This document shows positions 1 through 31,386 of a DNA stretch of 32,000 bases, one piece after another; positions within the stretch are counted from its first letter, which is position 1, and the number at the start of each line of letters is the position of its first letter. Source of the DNA: an uncultured Alphaproteobacteria bacterium (GTDB lineage: Bacteria > Pseudomonadota > Alphaproteobacteria > Rhizobiales > Xanthobacteraceae); NCBI GenBank assembly GCA_963709855.1, contig CAVPXX010000012.1, positions 18,269 to 50,268 on the forward strand, written 5' to 3'. Position numbers and translations under genes: made by a program. The notes under the pieces were generated by a model. It saw only the letters and a list, made by a program, of their open reading frames with translations. It was not told where the DNA came from and ran no database searches.

Positions 1-3000
1 TCCAGCGACTTCGCAAGTTCGCGCGTGCGGGTCTCAACACTCTCGAACAGCCGCACATTCTCGATCGCGATCGCGGCCTGGTCGGCGAACGTGGATACAA
101 GCTCGATTTGCTTGTCAGTGAATGGCCGCATCGCGTGACGCGTCAAGGTCAGAACGCCGATCGGAGTTCCCTCGCGTAACATCGGAACGCTTAAAATGGT
201 GCGAAAACCGCCCAGCTTCTGCCCCTCGACAAAAGTATATTCAGGGTCCGCCTGCACGTCGGGAATATGCACAACCTTACCCTCAAGCAGGGCCCGTCCT
301 GTACCCGTGCCACGCTCCGCAACGACTGGCAGGTTTCTGACGTACTCCGTGAAGTCGTCGGGGAAGCCGTAAGTTGCTACACGTAGGTACACGCCGTCCC
401 GCTCGCGGGCGATAGTCCCCTGATCAGCCTCACACAGCTGGGCGGCAGCCTCGACGAGAGCATCCAATACCGTTTTGAGATCAAACGCCGAGCGGCTTAT
501 GGCCTTAAGAACGTCCGCGGTCGCCGTCTGCTGCTGGAGCGCTTCAGTCAACTCCTCCGTACGCTTTTGCACCTCGTCAAACAGTCGGACATTTTCGATC
601 GCAATCACTGCCTGGTCGGCGAACGCCTTGACCAGCTCGATCTGTCGGTCGGAGAATGGCTTGACTTCACGACGATAGAGGGCAATCGACCCAATTGGTT
701 GCCCCTCGCGCAGCATCGGGACGCCGAGAAAGGTCCGAATACCGAGGGCTGTTTGGTGGGCCGCGGCGAAGGTATAATTCGGCTCGGCTGCAACATCCGC
801 AATGTGAAGAACGTTGCGCTCAAGGATGCTCCGCCCAACGAGTGACTTGGTGTCTGGCCGCCTCGGCCAGATTTGATGAAGGGCGTCGAGTGCGGCCTGG
901 TCGATATTGTGGTGGGCCACGACATTGATCATTTCTCCGTCAAAACGGAATACGATGCCGTACGTAGCTCCACATAGATTGACGGAATTGTTGGCGATCG
1001 TCTCAAAGATAGGCTGAAGGTCCGTCGCCGAGCTGCTTATGACGCGCAGCACCTCCGACGTCGCCGTTTGCTGCTCCAGCGCCTCCGAGAGATCGTCGGT
1101 GCGCTTTTGCACCTCATCAAACAGCCGCACATTCTCGATGGCAATCACCGCCTGGTCGGCGAAGATGAGGGCAAGCGCGATCTGCTTGTCGGTGAACGGG
1201 TTCACTTCATCGCGGGTGAGCGTGAACGTGCCAATAGCCGTCCCCTCACGCAGGAGGGGGATGCCAAGGATGGATCTATATCCGAATGCCTTTTGATAGC
1301 CAGCCGCGCGGTAATCGGGATCGGCCAGAACGTCTGGAATATGAATTGCCCTGCCTTCCAGTGCGGCACGCCCGGTCGCGCTGCCGCGGTTCGGTTGCAG
1401 CGGATGGTTCAACGCGTATTGCACCGCCTCGTCTGCAAAACCGTAATTGGCGCGTATCCGATATGCGTCGCCCTCCCGCATCATGATGGCACCCTTGTCG
1501 GCTTCGCAAAGCCGCGCCGCCGACTCCGTTAGCGTATTGAGCACCATCTGTAGATCGAACGTCGAGCGGCTGATGACCTTGAGCACGTCGGCGGTGGCGG
1601 TCTGCTGCTGGAGGGATTCACGCAGCTCGTTGAGCAGGCGCGAGTTCTCGATAGCGATGACGGCCTGTGCGGCAAAATCCGTTAGCAGTTTAACCTGCTT
1701 ATCAGAAAAAGGCCGAACCTCGGTGCGATATATAACAATGGCTCCGACCAACTCGTCCTCCTTGAGCATCGGGATCCCCACTACGCTTCGTGCGCCGGCG
1801 ACCTTGACCAGGGCCGAGCCCACATGACGCTCCTCAGTCGCGATATCGTCGAAACGGACCACGCCCTTTGCTTCAACCACGCGGCCAGCCACTGATCGAT
1901 CCAGGGGAACAACCGGTTCTCGCCGCCGCAGTTCTTCGAACGCAGCCGGGACATTGTAGTTGGCTGCATGTCTCATATTGGTTCCGTCGAATAACGACAA
2001 AATTCCGAATTGCGCCTCGCAGAGGTGAACCGCATTTTTTAACATTGTGTCGAACACCGGCTGCAGTTCGCCGGGCGAGCTGGAGATAACTTTGAGAACC
2101 TCCGAGGTCGCAGTCTGCTGCTCTAGCGCCTCGGACAGATCGTCGGTGCGCTGCCGCAGCTCGTTGAGCAGCCGCGCGTTTTCGATTGCAATGACTGCTT
2201 GGGCAGCGAAATTTTTGACCAGCTCGGTCTGCTTGTCGGCGAATGGGCGAACTTCCTGACGATAGATTGAGATTACACCGACCACCCGATCGTCATTGAG
2301 CATTGGAACCGCAAGTACGGTCCGCGCACCCCCGAGCCTGACTATCCCTTCTTCCGGTTGTTCCACAGCCATGTCAGCGACCTGGACGACCTGTTTGGTC
2401 GCGGCCACACGACTGAGAGTGGGCGACGCCGCAAGCGGCCGCACGGGGTCTCGAGCTCGTGCTTCAACATATGCCGGCGGACCATTGTGCAGGGCAGCGC
2501 GCCGATACGCATTGCCCTCAAACAATACAAGACTGCCAAACTTGGCACTGCAAATTCGTACCGCGTTTTCAAGGATGGCATCAAAGACTGGCTCAAGTTC
2601 GCCAGGCGAACTTGAGATGGTCTTCAGCACCCCTGTGGTCGCCGTCTGCTGTTCCAGCGCCTCGCTCAGGTCGTCGGTCCGTTGCCGAAGGTCTTTGAGG
2701 AGCCGCGTGTTCTCGATGGCGATGACGGCCTGTGCGGCGAAGTTCTTGACCAGCTCGATCTGCTTGTCGGTGAACGGCCGAACTTCCTGGCGGAAAATGG
2801 TGATGACGCCTATCAGGTCGCCTTCTTTCAGCATAGGCACCGCGAGGATGGTCCGATAACCGCCAAGTTCGACGCCAGCGACGGCCAATGGATCGCGCTC
2901 GATGTAGCCTCGCTCCTTCGTGATGTCGGCGAAATGGGTCACCTGCTTTGTCCTTGCCACACGGCCAAGGGGTACGTTTGGGCCCGGACGGATGGGCGCG

Positions 3001-3640
3001 CGCTGCATAAACTCAGCAAATGCGTGCGGGGCATTGTGCAGCGCGCCGACGCGGAAGGCGTCGCCCTCGCAAAGTAATAGTGCGCCGAACTTGGCATCGC
3101 AGATCCGCGTCGCGTTCTCCAGTAAGGTCCCGAACACCGGTTCTAACTCGCCGGGCGAACTGCTGATGACTTTGAGCACCTCGGACGTTGCCGTTTGCTG
3201 CTCCAGAGCCTCGGAAAGATCGTCGGTGCGCTTTTGCACCTCATCAAACAGCCGCACGTTCTCGATCGCGATCACCGCTTGGTCGGCAAAGGTCTTGATC
3301 AGCTCAATTTGCTTGTCGGTGAACGGCTTCACCTCAAAGCGGCGGATGCTGATAACGCCGATCGCCTCATTTCTCCTGAGCATAGGAACGGCTAAAATCG
3401 TTCGGTGACCGCGGCGCAGCGCCATCTCGCGGCCTTCCGGGAACTCCTCGCTAGTCGACAGATTGTGGACGTGGATTGGCGTGCGGTCCAAAAAGACACG
3501 CCCCGCCACCCAGCCGCGTCCGATCTCGTATTCAGTCGCGCCGGCGCCGATCGGGCCGTACATCGCTTTGATGTGAAGCTTGTCGCGCTGATGCAGGAAT
3601 ATAACACAATCATAGGCCTCACAAAGTTTCGCCGCCGAAC
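1..3640 (-). CDS. Multi-GAF-domain signalling protein, downstream portion. Partial: it continues past the left edge and is shifted one base relative to 3619..4401.
   Basis: My own translation of the minus strand gives an uninterrupted frame from about 3640 to position 1. It reads [33 protein letters not shown]...[52 protein letters not shown]... and repeats about six more times. It is missing from the ORF track because it has no stop inside the window. The first in-frame ATG is at 3563. The output domain is not visible. Confidence 0.8.
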
Positions 3641-4260
3641 TCGACCAGCGTGTTGAGCACCGCTTGCAGATCAAAGGTCTCGCGGCTGATAACCTTGAGC
3701 ACGTCGGCGGTGGCGGTTTGTTGCTGTAATGATTCGCGCAGCTCGCTGAGCAAGCGGGTGTTCTCGATGGCGATGACAGCCTGGGCGGCGAAGGTCTCGG
3801 CGAGTTCGATCTGCTTGTCGGTGAACGCCTCGACGAAGCCGCGCATCAACACCAGCACGCCGATTGGCTTCCCTTCGCGAAGCAACGGAACACCAAAGGT
3901 TGTGTGCACGTTCTCGAAGCCCGGAACGTTCGTTATTTTGAATTCTGGGTCGGCCTTGGTGTCTTCGATTTGAACGGCCTTACCCGCGCTGAGAACGCGG
4001 CCAACGATCGATCCCCGGTCCGGTTTGGCAGCCGGAACCGGATGTTCGTTCATGAATTGGTCTTGTTCTGGCGAATAGCCGTAGCTTGCGACGTGGTGGA
4101 AAAAACCATCCCTGGCGAGTCGGATTGACGCTCTGTCGGCGCGGCAGAGTCGGGCCACCGACTCGACCAGCGTGTCAAACACGGCCTGTAAATCAAACGC
4201 CGAACGACTGATGACCCGCAGCACCTCGGATGTCGCGGTCTGCTGCTCCAGCGCCTCTTC
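1..4260 (-). repeat. Tandem intragenic array of GAF modules with a period of roughly 513-551 nt.
   Basis: The QQTAT-encoding motif (plus strand gtNgcNgtYtgYtg) recurs near 4239, 3717, 3195, 2644, 2114, 1601, 1067 and 527. The start of a ninth linker ([21 protein letters not shown]) lies at 1-60. Confidence 0.85.
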
Positions 4261-4401
4261 AAGCTCACAGGTACGCCGGTCGAGTTGTTCCTGCAGGTCG
4301 GCAATGGATACGTGTGCGGTCGGCGCTTTGCGAGCCTTGGGCCTAATCGTCCTATGACGCTGGCCCTTCACCGGCTGTCCGCTTCCACCGCGTCGCTGCA
4401 T
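3619..4401 (-). CDS. N-terminal part of the same multi-GAF protein (basic N-terminus, coiled-coil linker, GAF 1, linker 2). It ends at a TGA created by a frameshift.
   Basis: 260-aa ORF with ATG at 4399-4401 preceded by GGAGGGGA. It contains [40 protein letters not shown], then a GAF-like body ([49 protein letters not shown]), then [34 protein letters not shown], then FGGETL-stop. Confidence 0.85.
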
Positions 4402-4540
4402 GTCGTCCCCTCCGGCGGGTCACGACGATGCTCAATCCTATGCAAATCCTAGCAGTCGCGCCATGGCAGAAACGCCCTGCGGGAGAGACAAGGAAGCCGA
4501 CACGGTGCCAAACCAACGAACCATCGCGGGCCAAAATCCA

Positions 4541-4611
4541 CCTTTGTCCGCTTTGGTCCAATAGCGGACAAACGCGGGTGCAGTCGGATTGTCCGTCAAC
4601 AGACCGATAGC
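4541..4611. repeat. Short interspersed hairpin repeat (REP-like), copy 1.
   Basis: It contains a perfect 10-bp stem, TTTGTCCGCT (4543-4552) / AGCGGACAAA (4563-4572), with a 10-nt loop, followed by cgcgggtgcagtcggattgtccg, which is shared with the other copies. Confidence 0.7.
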
Positions 4612-4638
4612 TCGCCGCTGATCTGCGCTACGGCTTTT

Positions 4639-5154
4639 TCACTTCAGCCGCGCGCTGATCTTGTCGAGCCCAGCTTTAGCACACGCTTCGTCGAGATCGC
4701 CGCCCGGAGCGCCGCCGACGCCAATCGCAGCGATTGCCTCGTTGTTAAGTTTGATGCGAAAAGCGCCGGGTTGCAACGCGACGTGGTCGAACTTGGCAAC
4801 GCCGCCGGCCGGCGGCGTCGGCCCTATGCGCTTGGCGATGGCGGCGCTCGAATCCTCATTACGCGCCGCGCCGAGCATGAGCACCGTGTAGGCCTTGTCA
4901 TAGGAGCTGTTGACTGCGATCAGTCCGGCGCCGTCCCCGCGTAGCATCGCCTGCGTCACGCCGTCGGTATCGATGATCGTTGCCGCGACCCGGTAGCCCT
5001 GCTTGGCGCAAGTCGCCACCGCCTCGGTCACCGCTTCCGACGCCAGCGCCGCAGACAGCCGGTGGGTGGTGAGCACGTCCTGGGCCGCCGCAAGCGTCGT
5101 GGCGCCAATCGCGATGCCCAAGGCGCCGGTGAGTGCGACGATGCGATTATTCAT
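4639..5154 (-). CDS. GlcG/HbpS-like (DUF336, haem-degrading family) protein with a signal peptide.
   Basis: Within ORF 4639..5340 the likely start is ATG 5152-5154, preceded by AGGGAGGG. The N-terminus is MNNRIVALTGALGIAIGATTLAAAQD. The body (AVATCAKQGYRVAATIIDTDGVTQAMLRGDGAG...AIAAIGVGGAPGGDLDEACAKAGL) is typical of the family. Confidence 0.75.
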   Translation of the reverse strand: MNNRIVALTGALGIAIGATTLAAAQDVLTTHRLSAALASEAVTEAVATCAKQGYRVAATIIDTDGVTQAMLRGDGAGLIAVNSSYDKAYTVLMLGAARNEDSSAAIAKRIGPTPPAGGVAKFDHVALQPGAFRIKLNNEAIAAIGVGGAPGGDLDEACAKAGLDKISARLK

Positions 5155-5248
5155 GAGAAACACCCTCCCTTGTTTGATTGCCGCGTATTGTAGAGCGCTT
5201 GTCGCAAAAGCGGACGCAAATTTTTGTGAGATCCCACCCACTTGCCGG

Positions 5249-5303
5249 CATAGCGGACAAACGTGGGTGCGGTTGGAATGTTCGTTTTGTGCCAAAGCCG
5301 ATA
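5249..5303. repeat. REP-like repeat, copy 2 (right half only).
   Basis: catagcggacaaacgtgggtgcggttggaatgttcgttttgtgccaaagccg aligns with copies 1, 3 and 4. Confidence 0.6.
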
Positions 5304-5436
5304 TCGCGCCTGGCTCGCTTCCCGAGCGCCGCATCATCAAACGGAAATGATTTTCCGCCGACTTCGATTACCTTGTCGGCACGCTACCGCGAGTGGCATC
5401 ATACCCGCGGTTGCAGATTTATACGGGGAGGACGAC

Positions 5437-6165
5437 ATGGGAACGATCAAGATTGCGGTATTCGGGCTGCTCGCGGCGGGGTTGGCGCTGGCGGCGGCAC
5501 CGGCATCTGCCCAGACCCAGACGCTCGAGGTAAGGGTAGACGGCTTAAAGAATGGCGGAGTGATCCCGAACCAGTATTGCTTCTGCGTGCCGGCGGCACA
5601 GGGGCATGTGGCACCCGGCCCCGATAAGAGTCCGGGCATCTCGTGGTCCAACGGACCGGCCGGCACCAAGTCTTATGTCATCACCCTAACCGATATCGAT
5701 AATGCAGCAGAACAACGCGAAAAACTGAACAAGGAAGGCATGACGGTTTCATCGTCGGCAGCGCGAAGAACAGTTTTTCACTGGGTCCTGATCGATATTC
5801 CTGCGAACGTCACGTCGCTACCCGAAGGCGCTGAATCGGAAGGTCGCGTGCCACACGGCAAACCGCAAATGCCGGCCATGGTTGGGGTACGCGGGCTAAA
5901 CGCCTTCACGAATTTCATGGCGGCCAACGAGCAGATGAAGGGCCAATGGTTCGGTTATGACGGTCCGTGTCCGGCTTGGAACGACGAACGCGCGCATCGT
6001 AATGTTTTCACGGTCTATGCGTTGAGCGTGCCGTCGCTCAATCTCAGCGGAGCATTTGACGGGTCCGCGGTGATGGCGGCGCTAGAGGGCAAGGTACTGG
6101 CTAAGGGCGAACTGGTCGGCCTTTCCTCGACTAACCCGGATGTGATCGCGAAGCTGCCGAAGTAG
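5437..6165 (+). CDS. YbhB/YbcL-type PEBP (Raf-kinase-inhibitor-like) family protein, secreted.
   Basis: In-frame ATG at 5437 follows GGGGAGGA. The signal peptide is MGTIKIAVFGLLAAGLALAAAPASAQ. The motifs SPGISWSNGPAGTKSYVITLTDID and HWVLIDIP, plus a ...GPCP...HRNVFTVYAL pattern, fit bacterial PEBP. Confidence 0.7.
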   Translation: MGTIKIAVFGLLAAGLALAAAPASAQTQTLEVRVDGLKNGGVIPNQYCFCVPAAQGHVAPGPDKSPGISWSNGPAGTKSYVITLTDIDNAAEQREKLNKEGMTVSSSAARRTVFHWVLIDIPANVTSLPEGAESEGRVPHGKPQMPAMVGVRGLNAFTNFMAANEQMKGQWFGYDGPCPAWNDERAHRNVFTVYALSVPSLNLSGAFDGSAVMAALEGKVLAKGELVGLSSTNPDVIAKLPK

Positions 6166-6235
6166 GAAACTGGCAGACAGGCGGCGCCATACACTCGTGG
6201 TGAGGTAATGCTAATGGCTTGCCAGAGTCCGCTTC

Positions 6236-6368
6236 GGGTCAATCGCGGCCTAGCCGATCAGCCCTAAAACCGGCCTTTGTCCGTTGTTAGTCCAATATGC
6301 GACAAACTCGGGCGCGGTTGGTTTGTCCGCGATGTGCCAATAGCGACCGACGCACCGCAGCAAACAGC
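6236..6368. repeat. REP-like repeat, copy 3 (long form), immediately 3' of the PF04392 gene.
   Basis: gggtcaatcgcggcctagccga...cctttgtccgttgttagtccaatatgcgacaaactcgggcgcggttggtttgtccgcgatgtgccaatagcg aligns almost base for base with copy 4. Confidence 0.75.
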
Positions 6369-6372
6369 ATCT

Positions 6373-7353
6373 CTATTCGATCACCTCGTCGGCGCGCGCG
6401 AGCAGCTGCGGCGGCACATCGACGCCGAGTGCCTTAGCGGTCTTGAGGTTGAGCACAAGCTCCAATTTGGTGGGCTGCTCCACTGGGAGATCGCCGGGGT
6501 TGGCGCCTTTGAAAATCTTGTCAATCAGGCCTGCCGAACGGCGGTAGAGATCGGGATAGCTCACGCCATAGCTGAAAAGTCCTCCTGCATCGACAAATTC
6601 ACGCGAGGGATAGGTGGTGGCGATTTTCTCCTTGGCCGCCAATTCGATGATCATTGCTCCATTCGCTTGAGTGGTGGCGTCGATCCCCACCAAAATGGCA
6701 TTGACCATGTGATCGACTACCATCCCGAATGCGTTCGCAATGTCCTGCGCGTTGCGAACGTCGAAAAGCTCGATCGCAATACCGAGAGTTGCCGCAACCG
6801 CCTGGCTTGCGTCCCATTGCGGAGCAGAAACGGGATTCCCCATGTTTTGCATAAAGGCCACGCGCGAGATTGACGGAAGCATCTCCTTCATCAGCTCGAT
6901 ACGCTTACCAGCCAGTTCGGTGACGAACGCGCTCAAACCCGTGATGTTGCTGCCCGGGTGCGCCAGGGTGGCGACAACGCCTACGCCGAGCGGCTCGCCG
7001 ATGGCAGCCATGACCACGGGGATTGTCTTCGTCGTCTCCTTGGCAGCCCGAGCAGCAGGGGTCCCCCGCGTGACTATGAGATCGACACGTCCTCGAACTA
7101 GCTCTAGCGCAAGCGCCGGGAACCTGTCGGCGTGGCCATCAGCCGAACGATATTCAATGACGAGGTTTTGCCCCTCAACATATCCCAGTTGCTGAAGCCC
7201 CTGCCGCAGCGCGTTGAAATTCGCTGCATTCGAGGCCAGCGGAATAGTTTCCAATATCCCGATCCGATAGGTGCGATTTGTTTGCGCCCGCGCCGCCACC
7301 GGCCACGCAGCCACCGCACCGCCGAGAAGGGTGATGAACTCGCGCCGCCTCAT
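6373..7353 (-). CDS. ABC-transporter-type periplasmic substrate-binding protein (PF04392 ABC_sub_bind family), intact copy.
   Basis: Start ATG 7351-7353 gives MRRREFITLLGGAVAAWPVAARAQ, a Tat-like signal. The body reads YRIGILE...VEGQNLVIEYRSADGH...GTPAARAAKETTKTIPVVMAAIGEPLGVGVV. The C-terminus is KGANPGDLPVEQPTKLELVLNLKTAKALGVDVPPQLLARADEVIE. Confidence 0.85.
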   Translation of the reverse strand: MRRREFITLLGGAVAAWPVAARAQTNRTYRIGILETIPLASNAANFNALRQGLQQLGYVEGQNLVIEYRSADGHADRFPALALELVRGRVDLIVTRGTPAARAAKETTKTIPVVMAAIGEPLGVGVVATLAHPGSNITGLSAFVTELAGKRIELMKEMLPSISRVAFMQNMGNPVSAPQWDASQAVAATLGIAIELFDVRNAQDIANAFGMVVDHMVNAILVGIDATTQANGAMIIELAAKEKIATTYPSREFVDAGGLFSYGVSYPDLYRRSAGLIDKIFKGANPGDLPVEQPTKLELVLNLKTAKALGVDVPPQLLARADEVIE

Positions 7354-7465
7354 GCCCGACCCCAAGCTCAGGAGGCGGCATTTTAGCGGCTCAAACGAGT
7401 ACTTTGATAGGGCTGAAACCGGCATCAAAACCATTGCCGCAGAGTGCACAGCCAATGTCACTGTC

Positions 7466-7573
7466 GGGTCAAACGCGGCCTAGCCGTTGACGCCCCGTGC
7501 CAACTTTTGTCCGTTGTTAGTCCAATAGGCGACAAAAATCGGTGCGGTTGGTTTGTCCGCTTTGTGCCAATGG
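7466..7573. repeat. REP-like repeat, copy 4 (long form), 5' of the same PF04392 gene and in the same orientation as copy 3.
   Basis: gggtcaaacgcggcctagccgt...cttttgtccgttgttagtccaataggcgacaaaaatcggtgcggttggtttgtccgctttgtgccaatgg. Confidence 0.75.
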
Positions 7574-7691
7574 TGGATATATGCGGTATAATTTGCCCGT
7601 AGTCCTCGTGCTGACGGGCCGATCTAATGAGGCCGCGCCGTTTAGGCCGTCGGTGCTCTGAGCTACGCGACAATACCGGCTCAGGCTGCTC

Positions 7692-8516
7692 ATGGACGAT
7701 CCATTGAAGCAAGCAAAAGCCAAGGCGGCCGCTACCTACGACGCCGCAGCTGATCATTTTGATGATGAGTCGCTCGGTTTCTGGAAACGAATCGGCGAGC
7801 GCACCGTAGCTCGCCTTGCGTTGCCGGCCGGTGCCAATGTGCTCGACGTCGGCTGTGGGACGGGAGCCTCGGCCCTGCCGGCGGCGCAAATCGTCGGACC
7901 GAACGGTTTCGTCGTGGGAGTAGATTTGTCTGCACGTCTACTTGACCGGGCCCGAACCAAGACAGCGATGGGCCACCTTACGAATGTCGAGTTCCGCCTT
8001 GCAGATATGACGGCTCTTGGGTTCCCGGACGGGCACTTCGATGCCGTCATAAGCGTTTTTTCGATTTTCTTCGTGCCGGATATGGGAGCTTTGGTGCGCG
8101 AGCTGTGGCGTATGGTGCGACCCGGCGGGAAACTGGCAGTAACCACGTGGGGTCCGCGGATCTTTGAACCAGCCTATTCTCGCTGGCTCGCGGCGGTTAA
8201 ACGGGAACGTCCGGATCTCCATAGCGCCTTCAATCCGTGGGATCGCATCACGGATGTTGAGGTGGTAAGGCGTTTGTTGCGGGATGGTGGCGTCACGGAG
8301 GCTGACATCATAGCGGAAGATGGGTTGCAGCCTCTGCGCTCAGCCGAAGATTGGTGGATAATCGCAAATGGATCGGGGCTTCGGTGGACCATCGAGCAGA
8401 TGGGACCGGAGACCGCAGCGCGGGTAAGGGCGGATAACGTCCAATGGCTGCGTGAAAATGAAATCAAAGGCATCGAGACGAACGCGATTTATGCCATCGG
8501 TAACAAGCCGTCCTAG
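7692..8516 (+). CDS. Class I SAM-dependent methyltransferase.
   Basis: 274-aa ORF with SAM-binding motif I (VLDVGCGTGASALPAAQIVGPNGFVVGVDLS) and a later LVRELWRMVRPGGKLAV motif. Confidence 0.8.
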   Translation: MDDPLKQAKAKAAATYDAAADHFDDESLGFWKRIGERTVARLALPAGANVLDVGCGTGASALPAAQIVGPNGFVVGVDLSARLLDRARTKTAMGHLTNVEFRLADMTALGFPDGHFDAVISVFSIFFVPDMGALVRELWRMVRPGGKLAVTTWGPRIFEPAYSRWLAAVKRERPDLHSAFNPWDRITDVEVVRRLLRDGGVTEADIIAEDGLQPLRSAEDWWIIANGSGLRWTIEQMGPETAARVRADNVQWLRENEIKGIETNAIYAIGNKPS

Positions 8517-8529
8517 GCGGGCGAACAAT

Positions 8530-8616
8530 CCGACAAGAAGGGGGTGCGCGGATAGGTGCGGCTGGAATGTCCGCTAAGTGCCCAAAACCGGACTCATGCA
8601 CCGCAGCAAACAGCAA
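8530..8616. repeat. REP-like repeat, copy 5, immediately 3' of the truncated PF04392 remnant.
   Basis: ggtgcggctggaatgtccgctaagtgcccaaaaccggactcatgcaccgcagcaaacagca shares both the core and the ccgcagcaaacagca 3' junction with copy 3. Confidence 0.65.
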
Positions 8617-8618
8617 CT

Positions 8619-8975
8619 CTACTTGATCACCTCGTCGGCGCGAGCGAGCAGCGAAGGCGGCACGGTGAGGCCGAGCATCCGTGCAGTTTGATGATTGACG
8701 ACCAGTTCAAACTTGGTTGATTGCACAACTGGCAAATCCGCAGGTTTCGCGCCCTTCAGGATGCGCCCCGTATAAAGCCCCGCTTGATGAAACGCGTCGG
8801 TGACATCGGCTCCGTAGCTCATCAGTCCACCGAACGCCGGATAGTCGCGCGAGGTAAAGGCCGACGGCAGGGTGTAACGCATCGCAAGCAGCCCCAATTG
8901 CAAACGTCGGCTGTTGAAGAAGCCGCATGGCTGCGGAAACTAAAGCCAGAAGTGTGCGCATTTTGTAGTCTCCTT
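8619..8975 (-). pseudogene. Truncated and frame-disrupted remnant of a PF04392 binding-protein gene. Only the C-terminal ~90 aa are homologous.
   Basis: The frame 8619..8903 reads [89 protein letters not shown]. An ATG near 8972 with an AAAGGAG ribosome-binding site opens a signal-like MRTLLALVSAAM... in a different frame. The ~230-aa central body is missing. Confidence 0.7.
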
Positions 8976-9043
8976 TGGTCACTCCGAAAGCGGCATGCTT
9001 GGCACCGTCGAAGCGTTCGAATTCATATCGAATAGTTGTTCGT

Positions 9044-9808
9044 CTACTTATCGCTGCGGGAAAAACCCGGGCCCATATCCCAGGCCAACGGGTAATAGGG
9101 ACGATCCACGCTGCGGCACCAATTCTCCCATCCCCGTTCAAGCGTAAAGCCGGCGCGGCCCTTGGTGTTGGCGGCGATTTCACCGTCGCTCAAATAAGTA
9201 ACCTCGCCCATTGCCAGCGCCTTGCCGAGCATCTGGGCGTTGATTTCGGTGTAGATCGAGGTAAACACCGCCTCGCGCAACGACCTGCCGACTACCACGC
9301 AGCCGTGACCACGCATGAGAGCCACGGTGCGCATGCCAAGCGAATTGGCAAGGTCGCGCGCCATCTCCATGTTGGTAACGAGCAAGTTGGTGCTGTCGCC
9401 GAATTTGTCACGAATGTCCCAATTCGGAACGTCGCGGCCGACTGGCGAGGCCATGTGCATGATCGCGCAGAAGCACTGCTTTTTCACTACCGAGAACGGA
9501 ACGATGTTTGGACTGTGGTTGTGAACGACCGACCCGACGTCGGGACGCGCCTCCAGCACGGCGCCATGAATAAACCTCTCCGTATACGGCTTTCCGGGTT
9601 CAGGGCCGACAACCGTGCCGTCGAGTGTAAATTCCATAATGTCGTCGATCTCGACGCACATCGGCGCTCGGGCGCGGGCCATGAGAAAATGGCCGGGGTT
9701 GTCCGGATGACGGATCGACACGTGGCCGAATGAATCGAGTACGTTGTTGTCGGCGAGAATCCGGTTCGCGGTGACGAGATCATCTTTCAATCGGTACAAG
9801 TCAGTCAT
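9044..9808 (-). CDS. Class II aldolase/adducin-family protein.
   Basis: Start ATG 9806-9808 follows GGAG. The sequence MTDLYRLKDDLVTANRILADNNVLDSFGHVSIRHPDNPGHFLMARARAP...FIHGAVLEARPDVGSVVHNHSP...VALMRGHGCVVVGRSLREAV carries the family His-rich metal-site pattern. The upstream part of ORF 9044..10099 has no family resemblance. Confidence 0.8.
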   Translation of the reverse strand: MTDLYRLKDDLVTANRILADNNVLDSFGHVSIRHPDNPGHFLMARARAPMCVEIDDIMEFTLDGTVVGPEPGKPYTERFIHGAVLEARPDVGSVVHNHSPNIVPFSVVKKQCFCAIMHMASPVGRDVPNWDIRDKFGDSTNLLVTNMEMARDLANSLGMRTVALMRGHGCVVVGRSLREAVFTSIYTEINAQMLGKALAMGEVTYLSDGEIAANTKGRAGFTLERGWENWCRSVDRPYYPLAWDMGPGFSRSDK

Positions 9809-10458
9809 CCTGCTGCTCCAAGTTCGCCTCTGCGGTGATTGAAGCATCCTCGACCAAGGCAACTCTCCTCCCCCGTCCATAACCAGCAAACAAATCAAGA
9901 CGAAGTCGCGAACTACGTCAGCCCTATTTTGTCTTCTCGCGACTTCCGTCCAGCATCCAGGAGAACATCTCCTTGGTGCGGCGCGTCCTTGATTTGGGTC
10001 AAGCATCCCCAAGACAGCAATTAAACGCTGTGCGAAGATTGAAAGAATGCGCCTGATATTGCCGCACTGCGATATCGGGTGACCTTCTTGGCGCAGCACG
10101 GTGCAGGCAATGACAAGCTAAAAGCGTGCGGGACCGCAAATCCGAAACTTGAAACGCGTTACGCTTTTCTTGGCCAATTCGCGACGCAGCGTTGAAATTA
10201 CCTCAAGCTTATGTTCGAACGGCCGTTTATCCAGCGAGCTTGCATCGTTCTGATCGACAATTCAAGGACTTCGGTCATAAGGAGACGCAAGAAATTTCTA
10301 GACGGAGATCGATGCTTCGATAAACAAGCGAGGCGTGGCAGGTATCGAACGCAACCGATAAGATCAATTAATTTATTGCTTTCCTGTTCGATTCACAGAA
10401 TACATTTTGAAATTATACGGAGCAGCGGCAGCACGGCGATTGAGAAAGGAAAAGACAA

Positions 10459-11064
10459 ATGCGACGCCTAATTGTTGGCATGACCGGTGCAACCGGCGCA
10501 ATTTTCGGTGTGCGAATACTTGAGGCACTTAAAGACTGCGACGTGGAATCGCATCTTGTAATTAGCAACTGGGCGCGGCGAACTATTGAGCATGAGACGC
10601 CTTACACCGTTAAACAAGTGTGTGCGTTGGCCAATGTTTACCACAATTCAGCGAACATGGCGGCGAAAATCTCCTCAGGCTCGTTTATTACCGATGGTAT
10701 GGTGGTGATACCGTGCTCGATGCGAACGCTGAGCGGCATCGCACACGGTTATGGCGAACACCTCATCCATCGTGCTGCCGATGTAATTCTCAAAGAACGG
10801 CGACGGCTGGTGCTCGTCGTGCGCGAGTCGCCGTTATCCGAATTGCACCTCGAAAACATGCTGAAGCTAGCCCGCGCGGGGGCATCGATAATTCCGCCAA
10901 TGCCTGCCTTTTACAACCATCCAAAATCTATCGATGATATCGTCGACCATATCGTGGCGCGTGTGCTTGACCAGTTCGGCATCACTGCGCGTTTTGCCAA
11001 GCGCTGGGACGGCAAAATGAAGATGACGTCCCAGCTAAATGCCGAGCCGACGGACAACAACTAA
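10459..11064 (+). CDS. ubiX: UbiX-family flavin prenyltransferase (prFMN synthase).
   Basis: MRRLIVGMTGATGAIFGVRILEALK...VIPCSMRTLSGIAHGYGEHLIHRAADVILKERRRLVLVVRESPLSELHLENMLKLARAGASIIPPMPAFYNHP is a textbook UbiX/Pad1 sequence. The ribosome-binding site is GAAAGGAAAAG. Confidence 0.92.
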   Translation: MRRLIVGMTGATGAIFGVRILEALKDCDVESHLVISNWARRTIEHETPYTVKQVCALANVYHNSANMAAKISSGSFITDGMVVIPCSMRTLSGIAHGYGEHLIHRAADVILKERRRLVLVVRESPLSELHLENMLKLARAGASIIPPMPAFYNHPKSIDDIVDHIVARVLDQFGITARFAKRWDGKMKMTSQLNAEPTDNN

Positions 11065-11074
11065 TGGCCGCGCC

Positions 11075-11833
11075 ATGACTGCGGTAAATGCCTTACATCG
11101 GGGATTGGCTATCCTGCGTGCGATCAATGACGGCCACGTGCAGCTTCGCGAGATCAGCGCGGCTGCCAAACTGCCGAAGTCGACAATCGCTCGCATGTTG
11201 GAAACCTTGGTCGCCGATGGCTACGTGGCCCAGGATAGTGAGAAAGGTTATCACGTTACCGCGCGTGTCTTGACCCTCTCGCGCGGCTATAACGCCCACG
11301 AGTTCCTGCTCAAGGCGGCGCAACCCGTTTTGGAGGGCCTGCGTAAACATCAGGTCTGGCCGAGCGATCTTGCGGTATTCGATCAAGACGCCATGGTTGT
11401 TCTCGACACTGGCCGTGATCCGGGCACATTGTCGCTCAACCGTACCGTCGGGTCGCGCCTGCCGGTGCTGGTGACGTCGCTTGGCCGCGCTTTTCTCGGC
11501 TTCGCCGACGACGAGCTGGTTGACCGGACGCTTTCCCGCCTAGCCCGATCGACTGATGCTTTTGATGCGCCGGCAAAGAATGCCGCCGCTGTGCGACGCG
11601 TGCTCGGCCAAGTCCGGCGGCAAGGTTATGCGACCGGCGATCGCGAATACCAGCGTACCACCCGTACTCTTGCGGTGCCGGTCCTGGTCAATTCCGCGCC
11701 GGTGGCGAGCCTAAACATCATGGTGGTGCCAAGCGCGATGAGAATGGAGCAATTGGTGAAAAGCCTGCTGCCGGCGCTAAGCGCCGCCGCCAGGACAATA
11801 GGCACCGCGCTAACGCAAACGTCGCCGGGCTGA
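11075..11833 (+). CDS. IclR-family transcriptional regulator.
   Basis: N-terminal wHTH (ALHRGLAILRAINDGHVQLREISAAAKLPKSTIARMLETLVADGYV) and a C-terminal effector domain (GRAFLGF..., GYATGDREYQRTTRTLAVPV). ATG 11039, which overlaps ubiX, is an alternative start. Confidence 0.85.
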   Translation: MTAVNALHRGLAILRAINDGHVQLREISAAAKLPKSTIARMLETLVADGYVAQDSEKGYHVTARVLTLSRGYNAHEFLLKAAQPVLEGLRKHQVWPSDLAVFDQDAMVVLDTGRDPGTLSLNRTVGSRLPVLVTSLGRAFLGFADDELVDRTLSRLARSTDAFDAPAKNAAAVRRVLGQVRRQGYATGDREYQRTTRTLAVPVLVNSAPVASLNIMVVPSAMRMEQLVKSLLPALSAAARTIGTALTQTSPG

Positions 11834-11984
11834 TGTAGCAGTACAACAAGTTGGCATTTTCGCGCCAGCAGTGAAATCCCGATCCCTTTCTGCGGGCTAA
11901 TACTGAAGCCTCTGGAACAATTGATTTTTCTAGCGTTGCCCACAACCGTTTCGCAGTGTGGCCTATTCGCTGCGTTCCATCTAG

Positions 11985-11999
11985 CGGAATGACATTCCG
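11985..11999. promoter_or_regulatory. 15-bp palindrome; candidate IclR operator upstream of ubiD paralogue 1.
   Basis: CGGAATG-A-CATTCCG (7-bp arms) lies about 100 bp upstream of ATG 12098. It is nested inside a wider inverted repeat, CTAGCGG (11981-11987) / CCGCTAG (12027-12033). Confidence 0.35.
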
Positions 12000-12097
12000 A
12001 AAATGCTTGAGACGAGTTGCGAGACCCGCTAGCGTCACTCGTTTTTGGCGTGCGCCGGTTCGTGCCGCCGTCATCTCGCGCGGGAAGAGGTACGCAA

Positions 12098-13759
12098 ATG
12101 AACAAGATTGTCGACGTGCCGCTCGTCGGTTCGCATAAGCCTCAAGCGACCAATGCTATCGGCGAAAACCCGATCGCGGATTTGCGTGAATGGTTGGAAC
12201 GGGTGGAGGGAATTGGCGAGTTGACCCGAGTGCAACAGCCGGTTGACCGCGACGAAGAAATGAGCGCGATCTCATATCTGGTCGCCAAACAGCACCCCTC
12301 GCCGGCTGTCCTATTTGAGCGACCGCGCGGTTTCGAAAAGAGCGCAATCGGCGCCAGGATGTTGTGGAATATTCTCGGCCCCAGTGTGAAGCGCGTCGCG
12401 CTCACGCTTGAGGAACCGGCGGATACGCCGACAGTCGAATTGATCCGGCGTGTAAAGGACAAGCTCAAGCGGCGTCTGCCGCCGCAGGAGGTGTCTGCTG
12501 ATCAAGCTCCGGTCTATGAGAATACCGTCACTGGAAAAAATATTGATTTGAATTTGTTGCCGATCCCGCGGCACTGGCCGCTCGATGGCGGCCGTTATGC
12601 CGGCACCGCCGACGCGGTGATTACCCGCGATCCTGACAGCGGTTATCTCAATATCGGCACCTATCGAATGATGCTGCAGGGAAAGTCACAGGTCGGGCTC
12701 TACCTTTCGCCCGGCAAGGACGCACGTTTGCACATCACTCGGGCGTGGCAACAGGGCAAGTCCATCAATGTCGCCGCCGCCTGGGGCATCGATCCCCTGT
12801 TCATGTTGGTTGGCTCGCAGACATTTCCCAAGAATGTGTCCGAATACGAATACGCCGGCGGCATTAAGGGCCAGCCGATACCGGTCGTTCGCGGCATGAC
12901 GACCGATCTTCTGATCCCCGCCAACGCGGAGCTCGTTGTTGAAGGTGTTGTCCGGCCAAATTCGGTGAAATCGGAAGGACCGTTCGGGGAGTTTCCCGGT
13001 TATTACGGCCGGCCTGAAGCCGGCTGTCCGCTCGTCGACATCACCGCAGTGCACTACCGATCACAGCCAATTCTGACCAACGCCCTGATGGCGGATTATC
13101 CATCCTGCGAACAGAGCGGCTTTTTCTCGGTGATTCGATCAGCAAAGATCTGGGACGATCTCGACAAGCTCGGCATCCCCGGAATCCACGGGGTCTATTC
13201 GCATCCAGCGGCCGCGGGCGGGTTCGGCATGACCGTCATCAGCCTTGAACAGCGTTACGCCGGCCATGCCGCTCAGGTGCTGGCACTCGCGGCCCAGGTT
13301 CCCGGCGGCGCCTACTACACGAAATGGATTATTGCCGTCGACGAGGACATCGACCCGACCGACATGGATCAGGTGATCTGGGCGATGGCGAGCCGGTGCA
13401 ATCCGATCGACGACATCGATATCCTGCGCAACACTTGGAGTACCTGGCTCGATCCCACCCAGAACCCGCCGGAAAAGCGGCCTTACGGCTCGAAGGCGCT
13501 GATCAACGCTTGCAAAGAGCATCGCCACCTTCCGGTTTTTTCCAAACGCACCACGCTGCGTAAGAAAATCTACGATCAGGTTGCTGCGCGTTGGACGGAA
13601 CTTGGCTTGTCGGGCGAGGCTCCGGCCGTGCGGGCGTTCGAAGCCGAGAGTACGGTCACGTATCACGAGGTCGGCGGGTTCGAACCTGGGCGCCAGCCGG
13701 GCGAGAAAAAGCCGATGGACAAGACAAACAACAAGAAAATCAAAAAAAAGAAGATGTGA
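12098..13759 (+). CDS. UbiD-family prFMN-dependent (de)carboxylase, paralogue 1.
   Basis: ATG 12098 follows GGGAAGAGG. UbiD hallmarks are present: LNIGTYRMM, SEYEYAGG, EGPFGEFPGYYG, IIAVDEDIDPTDMDQVIWAMASRCNP. It has an unusual Lys-rich tail, NNKKIKKKKM. Confidence 0.9.
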   Translation: MNKIVDVPLVGSHKPQATNAIGENPIADLREWLERVEGIGELTRVQQPVDRDEEMSAISYLVAKQHPSPAVLFERPRGFEKSAIGARMLWNILGPSVKRVALTLEEPADTPTVELIRRVKDKLKRRLPPQEVSADQAPVYENTVTGKNIDLNLLPIPRHWPLDGGRYAGTADAVITRDPDSGYLNIGTYRMMLQGKSQVGLYLSPGKDARLHITRAWQQGKSINVAAAWGIDPLFMLVGSQTFPKNVSEYEYAGGIKGQPIPVVRGMTTDLLIPANAELVVEGVVRPNSVKSEGPFGEFPGYYGRPEAGCPLVDITAVHYRSQPILTNALMADYPSCEQSGFFSVIRSAKIWDDLDKLGIPGIHGVYSHPAAAGGFGMTVISLEQRYAGHAAQVLALAAQVPGGAYYTKWIIAVDEDIDPTDMDQVIWAMASRCNPIDDIDILRNTWSTWLDPTQNPPEKRPYGSKALINACKEHRHLPVFSKRTTLRKKIYDQVAARWTELGLSGEAPAVRAFEAESTVTYHEVGGFEPGRQPGEKKPMDKTNNKKIKKKKM

Positions 13760-15403: not shown

Positions 15404-16369
15404 ATGTCGAAACGGTGGCTTTGCACGATTGCACTGTTGTTGATGAGCTTCGGCACCCAATCATGGGCGCAGAGCTGGCCAAGCAAGCCTATCCGGGCGA
15501 TCGTGCCGTACAGTCCCGGCAGCGCGACTGACATCATTCCGCGCACGATTTTTGCCAAGGTCCAAGAACAACTGGGCCAGCCGATTATTGTCGAAAATCG
15601 TCCCGGGGCATCGAGCACGATTGGCACCGTAACGGTGGCAAAGGCTGAGCCCGATGGCTACACGATCCTAGTCGCCTCCTCGGCCTATACCATCGTGCCA
15701 TTGACAGTTGCGAATTTGCCCTATGATCCGTTGCGCGACCTGGTGGCGGTAACCCCGTTGGCCAATATGGCCAATGTGCTGGTTGTCTCTCCGGACAAAG
15801 CAGTCAAGACCGTCGGCGAGTTCGTCACAGCGGCTCGAGCGCGGCATGGATCGATGAATTATGTCACCATCGGAGAAGGAAGCGCGGCACATCTCAATTC
15901 CGTGCGGTTTCTTCGTGCCGCGGGCTTCGAAGCACAGCCGATACCCTATAAAGGGTCGCCGGCAGGGCTGACCGACGTCATGACCGGGCGGGTCGACTTT
16001 TATTTCTGTCCGCTGTTGCCTGCGCTTTCTCTGATTCGCGACGGCAAGCTCACGGCGCTGGCGGTGAGTAGCTTGGATCGCTCACCTAAATTGCCCGACG
16101 TGCCAACCACCATCCAAGCCGGGTTCCCGAACTCCGAGTATAATTTCTGGTTCGGTGTGTTCGCGCCCGCCAAAACTCCACCCACCATCATCCAACGGCT
16201 TTATGAGGAGATTACCAAGGCACTGCACGATCCGGGTGTGCAGGAAAAGTTGTCGAATCTCGGCGTCCAGCCGATGCCCATGACGCCGGCCCAGTTTGAT
16301 GACTATGTCCGCAAGGAACTCGAGCAAAACGCGGTGCTCGTGAAGGCAGCGGGCATCAAAGCTCAATAA
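15404..16369 (+). CDS. Bug/TctC-family (tripartite tricarboxylate transporter) periplasmic substrate-binding protein.
   Basis: ATG 15404 follows GGAGG. The signal peptide is MSKRWLCTIALLLMSFGTQSWAQ. Family motifs: WPSKPIRAIVPYSPGSATDIIPR, ENRPGASSTIG, PDGYTILV, IPYKGSPAGLTDVMTGRVDF. Confidence 0.88.
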   Translation: MSKRWLCTIALLLMSFGTQSWAQSWPSKPIRAIVPYSPGSATDIIPRTIFAKVQEQLGQPIIVENRPGASSTIGTVTVAKAEPDGYTILVASSAYTIVPLTVANLPYDPLRDLVAVTPLANMANVLVVSPDKAVKTVGEFVTAARARHGSMNYVTIGEGSAAHLNSVRFLRAAGFEAQPIPYKGSPAGLTDVMTGRVDFYFCPLLPALSLIRDGKLTALAVSSLDRSPKLPDVPTTIQAGFPNSEYNFWFGVFAPAKTPPTIIQRLYEEITKALHDPGVQEKLSNLGVQPMPMTPAQFDDYVRKELEQNAVLVKAAGIKAQ

Positions 16370-16409
16370 CGGCGAACTCATTTGGCATCTTTGTCTATAG
16401 GAAAAGTCC

Positions 16410-17411
16410 ATGATCGTCGATTTTCAACATCATTTCACGCCGCGCGAACTGTTCAAAGAGGACTTGGGTGACAAGCTAATCATCGCTTTCGACGAAACGG
16501 GTGCGCCGAGCTACACTTCGCACAAATTGCTTTATGATCTGGATGAACACATCCGCATGATGGACGTCGCCGGTATCGACGCCGCCTTCTTGACTAGCGC
16601 CGCCGCGATGTGTGCCGATATCGAGCGGTCGAAACTGGTCAACGACAAGGCCAAGCAAGCCGAGCGCGACTATCCGGGGCGCTTCATCGGAGCCGCCCAT
16701 GCCCATCCGCTGGGCGGCGCGCAGGCATTCAAGGAGCTGGCGCGCTGCGCACACGAGCTTGGCTTCCCGGGCGTGGTCATCACGTCGGAAGCCGATGGGC
16801 TGTTCCTCGATGCTCCGGAATACGAACCGTTCTGGACGGAAGCTGAAAAACTCGGACTGTTCGTTTTCGTACATCCGGCGCTGAAGCTGAATTTCCCCCA
16901 GCAGTTCGACGCCTACGACACGGCGCGCTCGGTCGGGCGTGAATTCTCGCTGATCATGGCCACGATTCGGTTGGTCAATGGCGGCGTCTTCGACCGCCAT
17001 CCGTCCCTCATGGTGCATATGGCGCACCTCGGCGGCGGCATCGCTTCCATGCTCGGCCGCATTCGCAGCTATCAGGACAAGGACTTCTGGGGCTTGCGCG
17101 GCAACGCCAAGCATGGCCGCACCTGCGAGAAGGATTTCGATTACTACCTGCGCAACAACTTCATGTTCGACACCGCCGGCTTCTGCGGCGCCATCGGCAG
17201 CGTCAAGACGGCATTGGTGGAGATTCCGGCCGAGCGCATCGTCTTCGCCACCGACTACCCGCAGGAGATTCGCGGGCGCGAGGTGGTGCGTGATTTCGTC
17301 CGCGATATCCGCAAGCTCGGGCCGGTCGGCGAGAAAATTATGTGCGGCAATGTCGATGTATTGCTGAAAGGGTGGAATTTGCCCCCTTCGAAGCCGTTAA
17401 AGATCCGGTAA
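16410..17411 (+). CDS. Amidohydrolase-2 family protein (PF04909; ACMSD / LigW / resorcylate-decarboxylase-like).
   Basis: 333-aa ORF. An N-terminal VDFQHHF motif, FVHPA, HLGGG and FATDYPQE match the metal-site pattern of the PF04909 decarboxylase/hydrolase family. The reaction type cannot be read from the sequence. Confidence 0.75.
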   Translation: MIVDFQHHFTPRELFKEDLGDKLIIAFDETGAPSYTSHKLLYDLDEHIRMMDVAGIDAAFLTSAAAMCADIERSKLVNDKAKQAERDYPGRFIGAAHAHPLGGAQAFKELARCAHELGFPGVVITSEADGLFLDAPEYEPFWTEAEKLGLFVFVHPALKLNFPQQFDAYDTARSVGREFSLIMATIRLVNGGVFDRHPSLMVHMAHLGGGIASMLGRIRSYQDKDFWGLRGNAKHGRTCEKDFDYYLRNNFMFDTAGFCGAIGSVKTALVEIPAERIVFATDYPQEIRGREVVRDFVRDIRKLGPVGEKIMCGNVDVLLKGWNLPPSKPLKIR

Positions 17412-17531
17412 AGGCGACGAAGGAACAGCCTAAAACACTGAGCATGGCGGAGGAGACCTTGACGATGGTCAAGGTCATTTTGGATGAGCCCGACTATTCA
17501 ACTTAAAGAAAAATAGCTGTTTGGCGCCGTC

Positions 17532-31021: not shown

Positions 31022-31386
31022 GGCACGCCTTCGTGGCGATGGACCATGAGCCGCCCGATGCCATCTTGATGGTCTCGGACTCGCTGACGCTCCTCAATCG
31101 TAAGCGCGTCATTGATTACGCCGCCGAGCATCAGCTGCCGGCAATCTATGAGTTCGACGCACTCCTTCGCGATGGCGGTTTGACGTCTTACGGTGCCGAC
31201 CAGCGCGAATCCTTTAATCGCGCGGCCGCCTTGGTCGACAGCGTATTCAAGGGCGTGAGACCAGGCGATCTACCGGTCGAGCAGCCGACGCGCTACCTAT
31301 TCGTCTTCAATCAGAAAACCGCCAAGGCGATGAATCTTAACGTGCCAAACACGCTGGTTGCGCTTGCCGACGAGGTGATCGAATGA
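31018..31386 (+). pseudogene. C-terminal ~120-aa fragment of a PF04392 binding protein. The reading frame is open but lacks the signal peptide and N-terminal lobe.
   Basis: AAEHQLPAIYEFDALLRDGGLTSYGADQRESFNRAAALVDSVFKGVRPGDLPVEQPTRYLFVFNQKTAKAMNLNVPNTLVALADEVIE. The start overlaps the preceding stop (ATGA at 31018-31021). Confidence 0.6.

Follow-up and report, generated by a model that had tools for sequence, protein, structure and literature searches.

Eight GAF domains joined by heptad-quantised linkers in a soluble sensor histidine kinase of an uncultured alphaproteobacterium

Introduction

What kind of protein is encoded by a gene that consists almost entirely of one repeated unit, and what might the repetition be for? 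The question is raised by a locus in the genome of an uncultured alphaproteobacterium of the family Xanthobacteraceae (GenBank assembly GCA_963709855.1; 4.5 Mb in 35 contigs). The window, that is, the whole 32,000-nucleotide stretch of DNA that was analysed, corresponds to C12:18269-50268, where C12 is contig CAVPXX010000012.1. The gene lies on the minus strand at window positions 1-4401 and extends past the left window edge, with a full span of C12:17428-22669. An initial annotation, made from the sequence of the window alone, described a giant protein of tandem GAF modules joined by a near-invariant QQTAT linker, and suggested a rod-like integrator of multiple inputs.

We find that the gene product is a soluble, cytoplasmic sensor histidine kinase of the two-component type, with a basic N-terminus, eight GAF domains and a HisKA/HATPase_c core; a receiver that is its probable partner is encoded downstream. 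The helical linkers that join the GAF domains differ in length by whole heptads. Taken as a whole, the observations are probably best explained by a phased eight-GAF kinase that signals through a dimeric spine, evolves by cassettes and carries an artefactual frameshift in this assembly.

Results

Eight GAF domains and a histidine kinase core

A six-frame listing of open reading frames (ORFs) splits the gene into an ATG-initiated ORF of 260 amino acids (aa; 4401..3619) and a second frame, 3674..3, that leaves the window. The second frame contributes 1,224 aa inside the window and 1,504 aa with its extension. Rather than the single open frame of more than 1,460 aa proposed initially, the gene is thus broken in this assembly by one extra T. 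Skipping this base, for the purpose of analysis only, yields a read-through protein of 1,746 aa.

Profile searches with the Pfam GAF entries (PF01590, PF13185 and PF13492; cut-off 22.4 bits) detected eight GAF domains on the minus strand of 1-4401. Seven are in frame 3674..3, with 406 bits in total over seven stretches of the 1,224-aa portion, and one is in frame 4401..3619 (71.8 bits). The eighth domain scored 74.2 bits (E=1.9e-20). Pfam, the AlphaFold2 fold and Foldseek (below) agree that the repeat units are GAF domains, as had been proposed. Matches to DUF3369, SpoVT_C and dCache_3 were rejected as sub-threshold echoes of the GAF end helix. The QQTAT motifs start at residues 52, 226, 400, 583, 760, 931, 1109 and 1289 of the read-through protein, a period of 171-183 aa. 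The layout of the gene within the window is given in Table 1.

Table 1. Features of the multi-GAF kinase gene within the window (window positions)
Feature	Position	Strand	Description	Basis
Gene start	4246..4401	-	ATG at 4401; basic, probably disordered N-terminus of ~33 aa
N-terminal RT-containing helix	within 4246..4401	-	Leads into first QQTAT	Translation
GAF module 1	3724..4245	-	Class A; QQTAT lead helix and short 16-residue end linker	Pfam (E=1e-19), module tree
GAF module 2	3201..3723	-	Class A; frameshift-interrupted; ends in long 23-residue S-helix-type linker
Frameshift site	3638..3639	-	Two T's versus one in intact modules; intact GAGTCG contains GANTC
TGA ending the 260-aa frame	3619..3621	-	Consequence of the frameshift	ORF listing
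GAF module 3	2652..3200	-	Class B (12 protein letters not shown); long linker	Pfam, tree
GAF module 4	2121..2651	-	Class B; long linker	Pfam, tree
GAF module 5	1608..2120	-	Class B; short linker, one heptad missing	Pfam, tree
GAF module 6	1074..1607	-	Class A; long linker	Pfam, tree, AlphaFold2 model
GAF module 7	534..1073	-	Class B' (11 protein letters not shown); long linker	Tree, model, dS
GAF module 8	18..533	-	Class A; last GAF	Pfam, tree, model
First residues of RT-containing helix	1..17	-	GAF 8 to kinase	Translation, model

The linker at the window edge had been counted as a ninth, and extension of the contig to the left had been suggested as a way to find the output domain of the protein. 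The frame runs 840 nucleotides (nt) beyond the edge to a stop at C12:17428 (C12:17428-18268), adding 280 aa that comprise a HisKA domain (28.3 bits; cut-off 26.9) and a HATPase_c domain (84.8 bits). The linker therefore leads into the dimerisation and histidine phosphotransfer (DHp) domain of a histidine kinase, and there is no ninth GAF. All catalytic boxes were found, namely H (HEIKNPL), N (LLNLISNG), G1 (DNGTGI), F (FNPFFT) and G2 (GEGTGLG). No membrane-like segment was detected in the protein; the highest mean Kyte-Doolittle hydropathy over 19 aa is 1.59, inside a GAF strand. Because no segment is hydrophobic enough, the kinase is taken to be soluble.

A gene for a receiver domain alone (131 aa; C12:16843-17238; receiver E=3e-21) lies on the same strand, 189 nt downstream of the kinase. 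Stand-alone receivers were also found downstream of the family kinases at 39 of 63 related loci. The adjacent receiver is probably the phosphorylation partner of the kinase core.

Linkers quantised in heptads

To compare linkers across the family, we scored the offset from the AIEN motif, which marks the end of a GAF, to QQTAT. Among 119 homologues, 498 linkers have an offset of 16 residues, 566 an offset of 23 and one an offset of 30. Among 149 further representatives at 50% identity it is 16 in 439, 23 in 302, 30 in five and another value in three. In other words, 1,811 of 1,814 linkers have one of three lengths that differ by seven residues, and in the alignment short and long linkers are separated by a clean seven-residue gap. 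We conclude that linker length is quantised in heptads. The conserved register that the initial annotation had proposed is borne out by these counts, and the continuous helix by structure prediction between consecutive GAFs.

If the Asn of AIEN is placed at heptad position a, the successive a and d residues of the long-linker core are N, L, V, R, L, A, Q, T, L and I, and those of the short-linker core are N, L, L, S, Q, T, L and I. The second Gln of QQTAT falls at a and its last Thr at d, just where the helix enters the next GAF. In the long form Arg-Thr stands at d/e, ten residues past the Asn. The short form, of which the gene has two, lacks exactly one heptad, and this is the Arg-Thr heptad. 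At this place the long linkers read KRT, QRT or TRT, the Arg occupying d and the Thr e.

This pattern resembles the signaling helix (S-helix), described as a helix of about 40 residues that lies between two signalling domains and forms a parallel dimeric coiled coil (PMC1592074). Its published signature places Asn at a and 'ERT' at c, d and e, with the Arg at d (PMC1592074). With Asn at a, hydrophobic a/d residues after it and Arg-Thr at d/e, the long linker is, by its sequence pattern, an S-helix-type segment.

A search of a literature library turned up no paper that describes this family, the QQTAT junction or the strictness with which linker length follows heptads. Queries for 'QQTAT' returned unrelated papers only, and queries for multi-GAF arrays returned only work on cyanobacteriochromes, phytochromes and PDE/CyaB2.

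Predicted structure

GAF domains consist of an antiparallel beta-sheet with the N- and C-terminal helices on one face and the pocket helices and loops on the other. The AlphaFold2 model of modules 6-7, built from a 96-sequence alignment (mean predicted local distance difference test score, pLDDT, 91.2), has the order of helices and strands expected for this fold. In the model the end helix of one GAF, the linker, QQTAT and the first helix of the following GAF form a single helix, residues 168-220. All top Foldseek matches are GAF structures, the best being PDE2A (3ibj), CyaB2 (1ykd), PDE5/6 and phytochrome GAF-PHY (E ~1e-17). A second model, of GAF 8 and the kinase (26-sequence alignment; mean pLDDT 74.6), contains one 94-residue helix, residues 145-238, that extends from the GAF end helix to the H box.

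Conserved scaffold and variable pockets

The consensus sequences given initially for the linker and the GAF body were correct and hold over 960 family modules. Positions conserved in at least 90% of these modules are QQTAT, V-L, I-S, a Cys at QQTAT+34, an Asp, R(T), VP, IG, PF.D.Q and a further motif (12 protein letters not shown). The most variable segment between modules is that of the GAF pocket, at about module residues 40-110.

The conserved Cys, one per module, lies in an RLC.A helix near the module N-terminus, at residues 86, 260, 434, 617, 794, 965, 1143 and 1323 of the read-through protein. Eight of the 11 cysteines of the protein are this residue, and the kinase core has none. From its conservation, the QQTAT+34 Cys is a possible redox or covalent-ligand site. 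DosT-like haem binding was considered and rejected: module 7 has one His near the ligand position, offset by one, and it does not recur in the other modules.

Evolution of the array

In an intact homologue of 1,753 aa from an independent assembly (P0102), the eight modules recur in identical order and without a frame break. In a maximum-likelihood (ML) tree of 28 modules, A and B form two distinct classes (support 95/96), arranged along the protein as A, A, B, B, B, A, B', A. The two classes and their order, with a B-like seventh module, had been recognised in the initial annotation; in the tree module 7 forms a separate branch on the B side. Modules 2, 4, 6, 7 and 8 pair one to one with their P0102 counterparts, the module 2 pair with support of 100/99.

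Relative to P0102, the ratio of non-synonymous to synonymous divergence (dN/dS) is 0.09-0.26 for modules 1, 3, 4, 5, 6 and 8 (dS at least 1.3), 0.18 for module 7 (dS 0.38) and 0.10 for the kinase (dS 0.95). For module 2 dS is saturated, with dN at 0.31, and the ratio was not computed. Purifying selection thus acts on the kinase and on all seven modules that have a usable estimate. The uneven dS across modules indicates a mosaic history. Module 7 (window 534-1073 versus L082:13367-13906, the P0102 locus) is the best conserved, with 86% aa identity, and its neighbours and the kinase are far more diverged. This comparison of sequences suggests a recent exchange or conversion of a single cassette.

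The closest relative by its 5' end, a locus in a Pseudolabrys metagenome-assembled genome (MAG; L002), has only three modules between the same 5' end and kinase. The start MQRRGG/VQRRGG is common to P0102 and L002. Nucleotide identity to L002 is 84% over a stretch that opens 70 nt before the start, includes module 1 and reaches the first codons of module 2; over the kinase and the preceding end of module 8 it is 77%. Close relatives have 3, 8, 9, 11 or at least 14 modules, the counts of 11 and at least 14 both coming from genomes of the same genus. In one of these (L090, G018:C1:982000-999000; minus strand 3411-13559), a 3,383-aa frame holds at least 14 QQTAT units and a receiver-like match.

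These counts bear out the earlier proposal that modules are gained and lost. The other part of that proposal, strong conservation of linker DNA, fared less well: conservation is moderate, DNA identity between modules of the gene is 60-84%, and the longest exact repeats, of 41 and 26 nt, are both in junctions. Recombination at junctions is plausible on this evidence, with a modest substrate.

A very large family without a name

The best related locus is in a Pseudolabrys MAG, and others are from Xanthobacteraceae, Bradyrhizobium, Mesorhizobium and many alphaproteobacterial soil MAGs. A length-restricted homology search gave at least 8,000 matches, named only 'GAF domain-containing protein' or 'NtrC family sensor kinase'. 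A junction profile of 75 positions, searched against 1.84 billion cluster representatives, matched 49,345 at E<=1e-3, 26,569 at E<=1e-10 and 8,072 at E<=1e-30. The array had been thought exceptionally long, which it is not: the best 119 homologues carry 4-13 QQTAT units, and the maximum is 17 junctions, in a 3,673-aa representative that ends in two receiver domains. Judged by these sequence matches, eight modules is mid-range for a very large family that has no name. All NCBIfam kinase families, among them AtoS, ZraS, NtrB, FixL and CckA, scored far under their cut-offs (best AtoS, 153.6 bits versus 646).

The genome itself encodes a second giant gene of this kind, with nine GAFs, on contig C33. 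A further family member starts inside the window, at 31341-32000 on the plus strand, and reaches C12:52614 (1,002-aa frame). It encodes dCache_1, HAMP, two QQTAT-type GAFs, HisKA and HATPase_c, so that the cassette also serves between a periplasmic sensor and a kinase.

On the P0102 contig (L082), phage-type genes (terminase large subunit, HNH) follow the homologue at 15646-18016, and a hemerythrin gene and insertion sequence (IS) fragments precede it; these surroundings are unrelated to those in the window.

A one-base frameshift in module 2

The extra T lies at 3638/3639, where the minus strand reads GAG-TT-CGG (3642-3635); modules 1 and 6 have GAGTCGG at the corresponding place. At the break one frame ends in a stop (preceding 11 protein letters not shown) and the other continues as SAAKLCEA. 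The 1,492 codons past the break are open, with no second lesion. Module 2 has no lesion besides the extra base and pairs with the intact module 2 of P0102.

To place this break in context, the frame of consecutive QQTAT motifs was followed in 80 related loci, sorted by assembly type. Frame switches were found in 18 of 152 module intervals (12%) of the long-read MAGs named 'MFDnnnnn.bin' (39 loci among L005-L081), in none of 102 intervals of other MAGs, which are mostly short-read as judged by contig naming and largely from the same taxa, and in none of 23 intervals of isolate genomes. The difference between the MFD set and the rest (0/125) gives a Fisher p of 2e-5, a value that is optimistic, since one locus contributes several intervals and one MAG several loci. 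Assembly of the MFD MAGs used Nanopore reads only, followed by one round of Medaka polishing (PMC12313526). A genome-wide tblastn test for frames split relative to ORFs of relatives was unspecific and was discarded; short-read controls gave as many 'events' as long-read genomes.

The same change, GAGTCG to GAGTTCG, occurs in the window at 3636-3642 and in the same motif of another module in G005 (locus L089, G005:C2 ~11906-11912). G005, of the same genus and with three contigs, has its multi-GAF kinase broken by that change. In a third MAG (L081 ~10665-10675) an extra base directly follows GAGTC.

In Alphaproteobacteria GANTC is the methylation motif of CcrM. The genome encodes one methyltransferase of PF01555, the family that includes CcrM. 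GANTC is rare in the gene, with six sites, and is under-represented in the genome (1.66 per kb versus 3.51 expected). In a reconstruction, three of about ten inspected frame switches fell on a GANTC site and the others did not, and we rejected the idea that all frameshifts lie at such sites, as it fits only some of the switches inspected. The recurrent insertion may reflect a systematic Nanopore consensus error at methylated sites.

Discussion

Given a soluble kinase with phased GAF domains, how might a signal pass along the array? By analogy with PDE2A/PDE6, CyaB2 and phytochromes, the protein would be a parallel homodimer in which the linkers form one long coiled-coil spine decorated with pairs of GAF domains. 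A change in a single GAF, such as in its ligand or redox state, would travel along this spine as a change of register or rotation. The change would set the balance of kinase and phosphatase activity in the C-terminal core, which would then phosphorylate the adjacent receiver. The array itself probably changes by gain, loss and exchange of cassettes at the conserved junctions. The dimeric rod and the direction and mode of transmission are proposed here by analogy, and ligand binding is likewise part of the proposal.

Several observations weigh against this account or limit it. The S-helix signature is (K/Q/T)RT here, the Glu of ERT being replaced. Both structure predictions are monomeric, so that the dimer and its parallel coiled coil are our extrapolation, and in the model of GAF 8 and the kinase pLDDT is under 50 for the part of the helix immediately ahead of the H box. 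Low confidence in the middle of this helix is to be expected when a dimeric element is modelled as a monomer. Prokaryotic tandem GAFs can also dimerise in antiparallel fashion, for example in CyaB2 (PMC1592074). With regard to the inputs, the NKFDE motif of cyclic nucleotide-binding GAFs is absent (no NK...F...DE pattern in any module), as are the bilin motifs, with neither a CH dipeptide nor DxCF anywhere in the protein, and no ligand, cofactor or stimulus can be predicted from sequence. Gene neighbourhoods are not conserved and give no functional clue; nothing upstream is common with L002 or the P0102 contig. Finally, a Nanopore origin of the present assembly is not established, and the frameshift may be real.

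Is the gene, then, intact and its array genuine? We hold with good confidence that the frameshift is a long-read consensus error and that the gene is intact in the organism, because frame switches of this kind are confined to long-read MAGs, the frame downstream stays open and the orthologous module 2 is intact. Alternatively, the frameshift could be real, marking either a fresh pseudogene or a gene with two products, a 260-aa single-GAF protein and a kinase that starts inside module 2 and retains six intact GAFs. The extra base is present in the assembly as given, the recorded gene-caller product is a 1,467-aa protein from an internal ATG (P0003), and the break at the same motif in a same-genus genome can be read as a mutational hot spot. 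Counter to this, no simple repeat is present at the site, and a protein begun at the internal ATG would contain a GAF that lacks its first two helices and first strand. The long-read bias and the absence of any second lesion in the following codons or in module 2 itself also count against it; we consider a real frameshift unlikely. The recurrence of the same one-base change in the same motif of two genomes could also be taken as a sign of programmed ribosomal frameshifting or phase variation that controls the number of translated modules. This is extremely improbable: the site offers neither a slippery run nor a simple repeat, and neither a stop codon nor a pause at rare codons; the extra base is missing from intact modules and from the orthologue; switches never appear in short-read assemblies; and those in other long-read MAGs are at many different positions. 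As for the array as a whole, repeats are a classic source of mis-assembly and L002 shows only three modules, which might suggest that a shorter gene was expanded or made chimeric by mis-joined repeats. However, the modules are too dissimilar, and their longest exact repeat too short, to confuse an assembler, the same eight modules stand in the same order in the independent P0102 assembly, and thousands of proteins have 8-17 units. An assembly artefact is therefore highly improbable, and the initial annotation's own concern that profile searches might find no GAF or that the array might be mis-assembled did not materialise.

A different question is whether the modules of an intact, phased kinase are sensors at all. 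Most of them could be ligand-free relays or spacers that lengthen and stiffen the dimer spine, or could report one global variable, such as redox state, through the conserved Cys. Arguing for this, the best-conserved positions are scaffold and junction residues, the modules have no known ligand motif, and the Cys recurs in nearly every module of the family and accounts for most cysteines of a protein whose kinase core has none. In the dCache membrane sensor of the same genome, moreover, the cassette lies between HAMP and the kinase and the primary sensor is periplasmic. Counter to this, the pocket segments are the most variable between modules, one-to-one pairs with P0102 remain highly identical (86% aa for module 7 and 75% for module 6), and the order of classes is the same in both eight-module genes. 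This identity, together with the low dN/dS where it can be estimated, suits distinct, maintained specificities better than spacers, with the qualification that whole modules were scored and not pocket columns. We regard the relay or single-variable explanation as somewhat doubtful. A bolder extension of the phased-array account, which is more doubtful again, is that S-helix, QQTAT and GAF together form a self-contained, heptad-phased plug-in sensor cassette, of which one to at least 17 can be inserted between any input and output. Cassette number would then be free to change without breaking signalling, because each cassette adds whole heptads; soil Hyphomicrobiales would shuffle cassettes that each have their own specificity, and the invariant Cys would be a covalent cofactor or redox site. 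If true, such a natural and evolvable 'signal bus' would have no described counterpart among GAF proteins.

The gene is an ordinary member of a family with tens of thousands of entries labelled only 'GAF domain-containing protein'. Among abundant soil bacteria (Pseudolabrys, Xanthobacteraceae, Bradyrhizobium and Mesorhizobium), the family represents a sensory repertoire that is large and has yet to be explored. If the idea of phased cassettes holds, it offers a natural experiment on signal transmission along very long coiled-coil spines, and so on models of helix rotation and register across 8-17 consecutive domains, and interchangeable sensor parts for synthetic signalling proteins. On a practical note, one-base breaks in these repeat genes in Nanopore-only MAGs need to be checked against reads before the genes are called pseudogenes.

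Comparison with known systems

The best structural matches to the modelled module pair, at 12-20% sequence identity, are the tandem GAF-A/GAF-B regions of PDE2A, PDE5, PDE6 and CyaB2 (3ibj, 3lfv, 8ugs and 1ykd), in which two GAFs are joined by one long helix as they are here. In the dimer, that helix forms a spine through which the catalytic domain receives the signal. These proteins differ from the kinase in having two GAFs rather than eight, in binding cGMP or cAMP via NKFDE, in lacking QQTAT and the Arg-Thr motif, and in their output, which is a phosphodiesterase or cyclase and not a histidine kinase. The gene thus resembles the cyclic nucleotide-binding tandem-GAF group (PDE2/5/6/10/11 and CyaB1/2) in architecture only.

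The linker is closest to the S-helix of Anantharaman, Balaji and Aravind (2006; PMC1592074), which likewise is a helix between signalling domains with Asn at a and Arg-Thr at d/e ten residues on. S-helices occur upstream of histidine kinases and between small-molecule-binding domains, with an expansion in Bradyrhizobium (PMC1592074). The linker differs in replacing ERT with (K/Q/T)RT, in having a short form without the Arg-Thr heptad, and in continuing through the invariant QQTAT into the GAF that follows. That study does not describe long homotypic GAF arrays of such a unit, and it sets inter-GAF linkers apart as poorly conserved (PMC1592074).

Many tandem GAFs in one signalling protein are also seen in the cyanobacteriochrome PtxD/NpF2164, which has seven (PMC5812497). 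There each GAF is an independent sensor, which gives multi-input behaviour (PMC5812497). This protein is the best-documented precedent for the multi-input idea. PtxD belongs to a different phylum and binds bilins via a canonical Cys (Cys-His), sometimes with DxCF, both of which are absent here; in the present family, arrays reach 17 units and the linkers are phase-locked.

By sequence, the closest solved structures are those of DosS/DosT (DevS) from Mycobacterium tuberculosis (2vzw, 2w3d and 4ynr; E 2e-9 to 6e-8). These too are soluble GAF histidine kinases, with a similar RTFLGVP strand and AI.NARLF end helix, but they have two GAFs, the first of which binds haem, and a kinase of another subfamily, and their haem-ligating His is not conserved here. 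Over the DHp and catalytic domains, the last 270 aa of the kinase align with cores of the NtrB/AtoS/ZraS type, which JGI annotation labels 'NtrC family sensor kinase' (E 6e-45 to 2.5e-22). Scores are far under the curated cut-offs, so that no named equivalog applies, and the probable partner here is a receiver alone rather than a sigma-54 activator.

GAF sensor kinases, S-helices and tandem GAF regulators are each known. What this family adds to them is the strict quantisation of its linkers in heptads together with the cassette-like evolution of its arrays.

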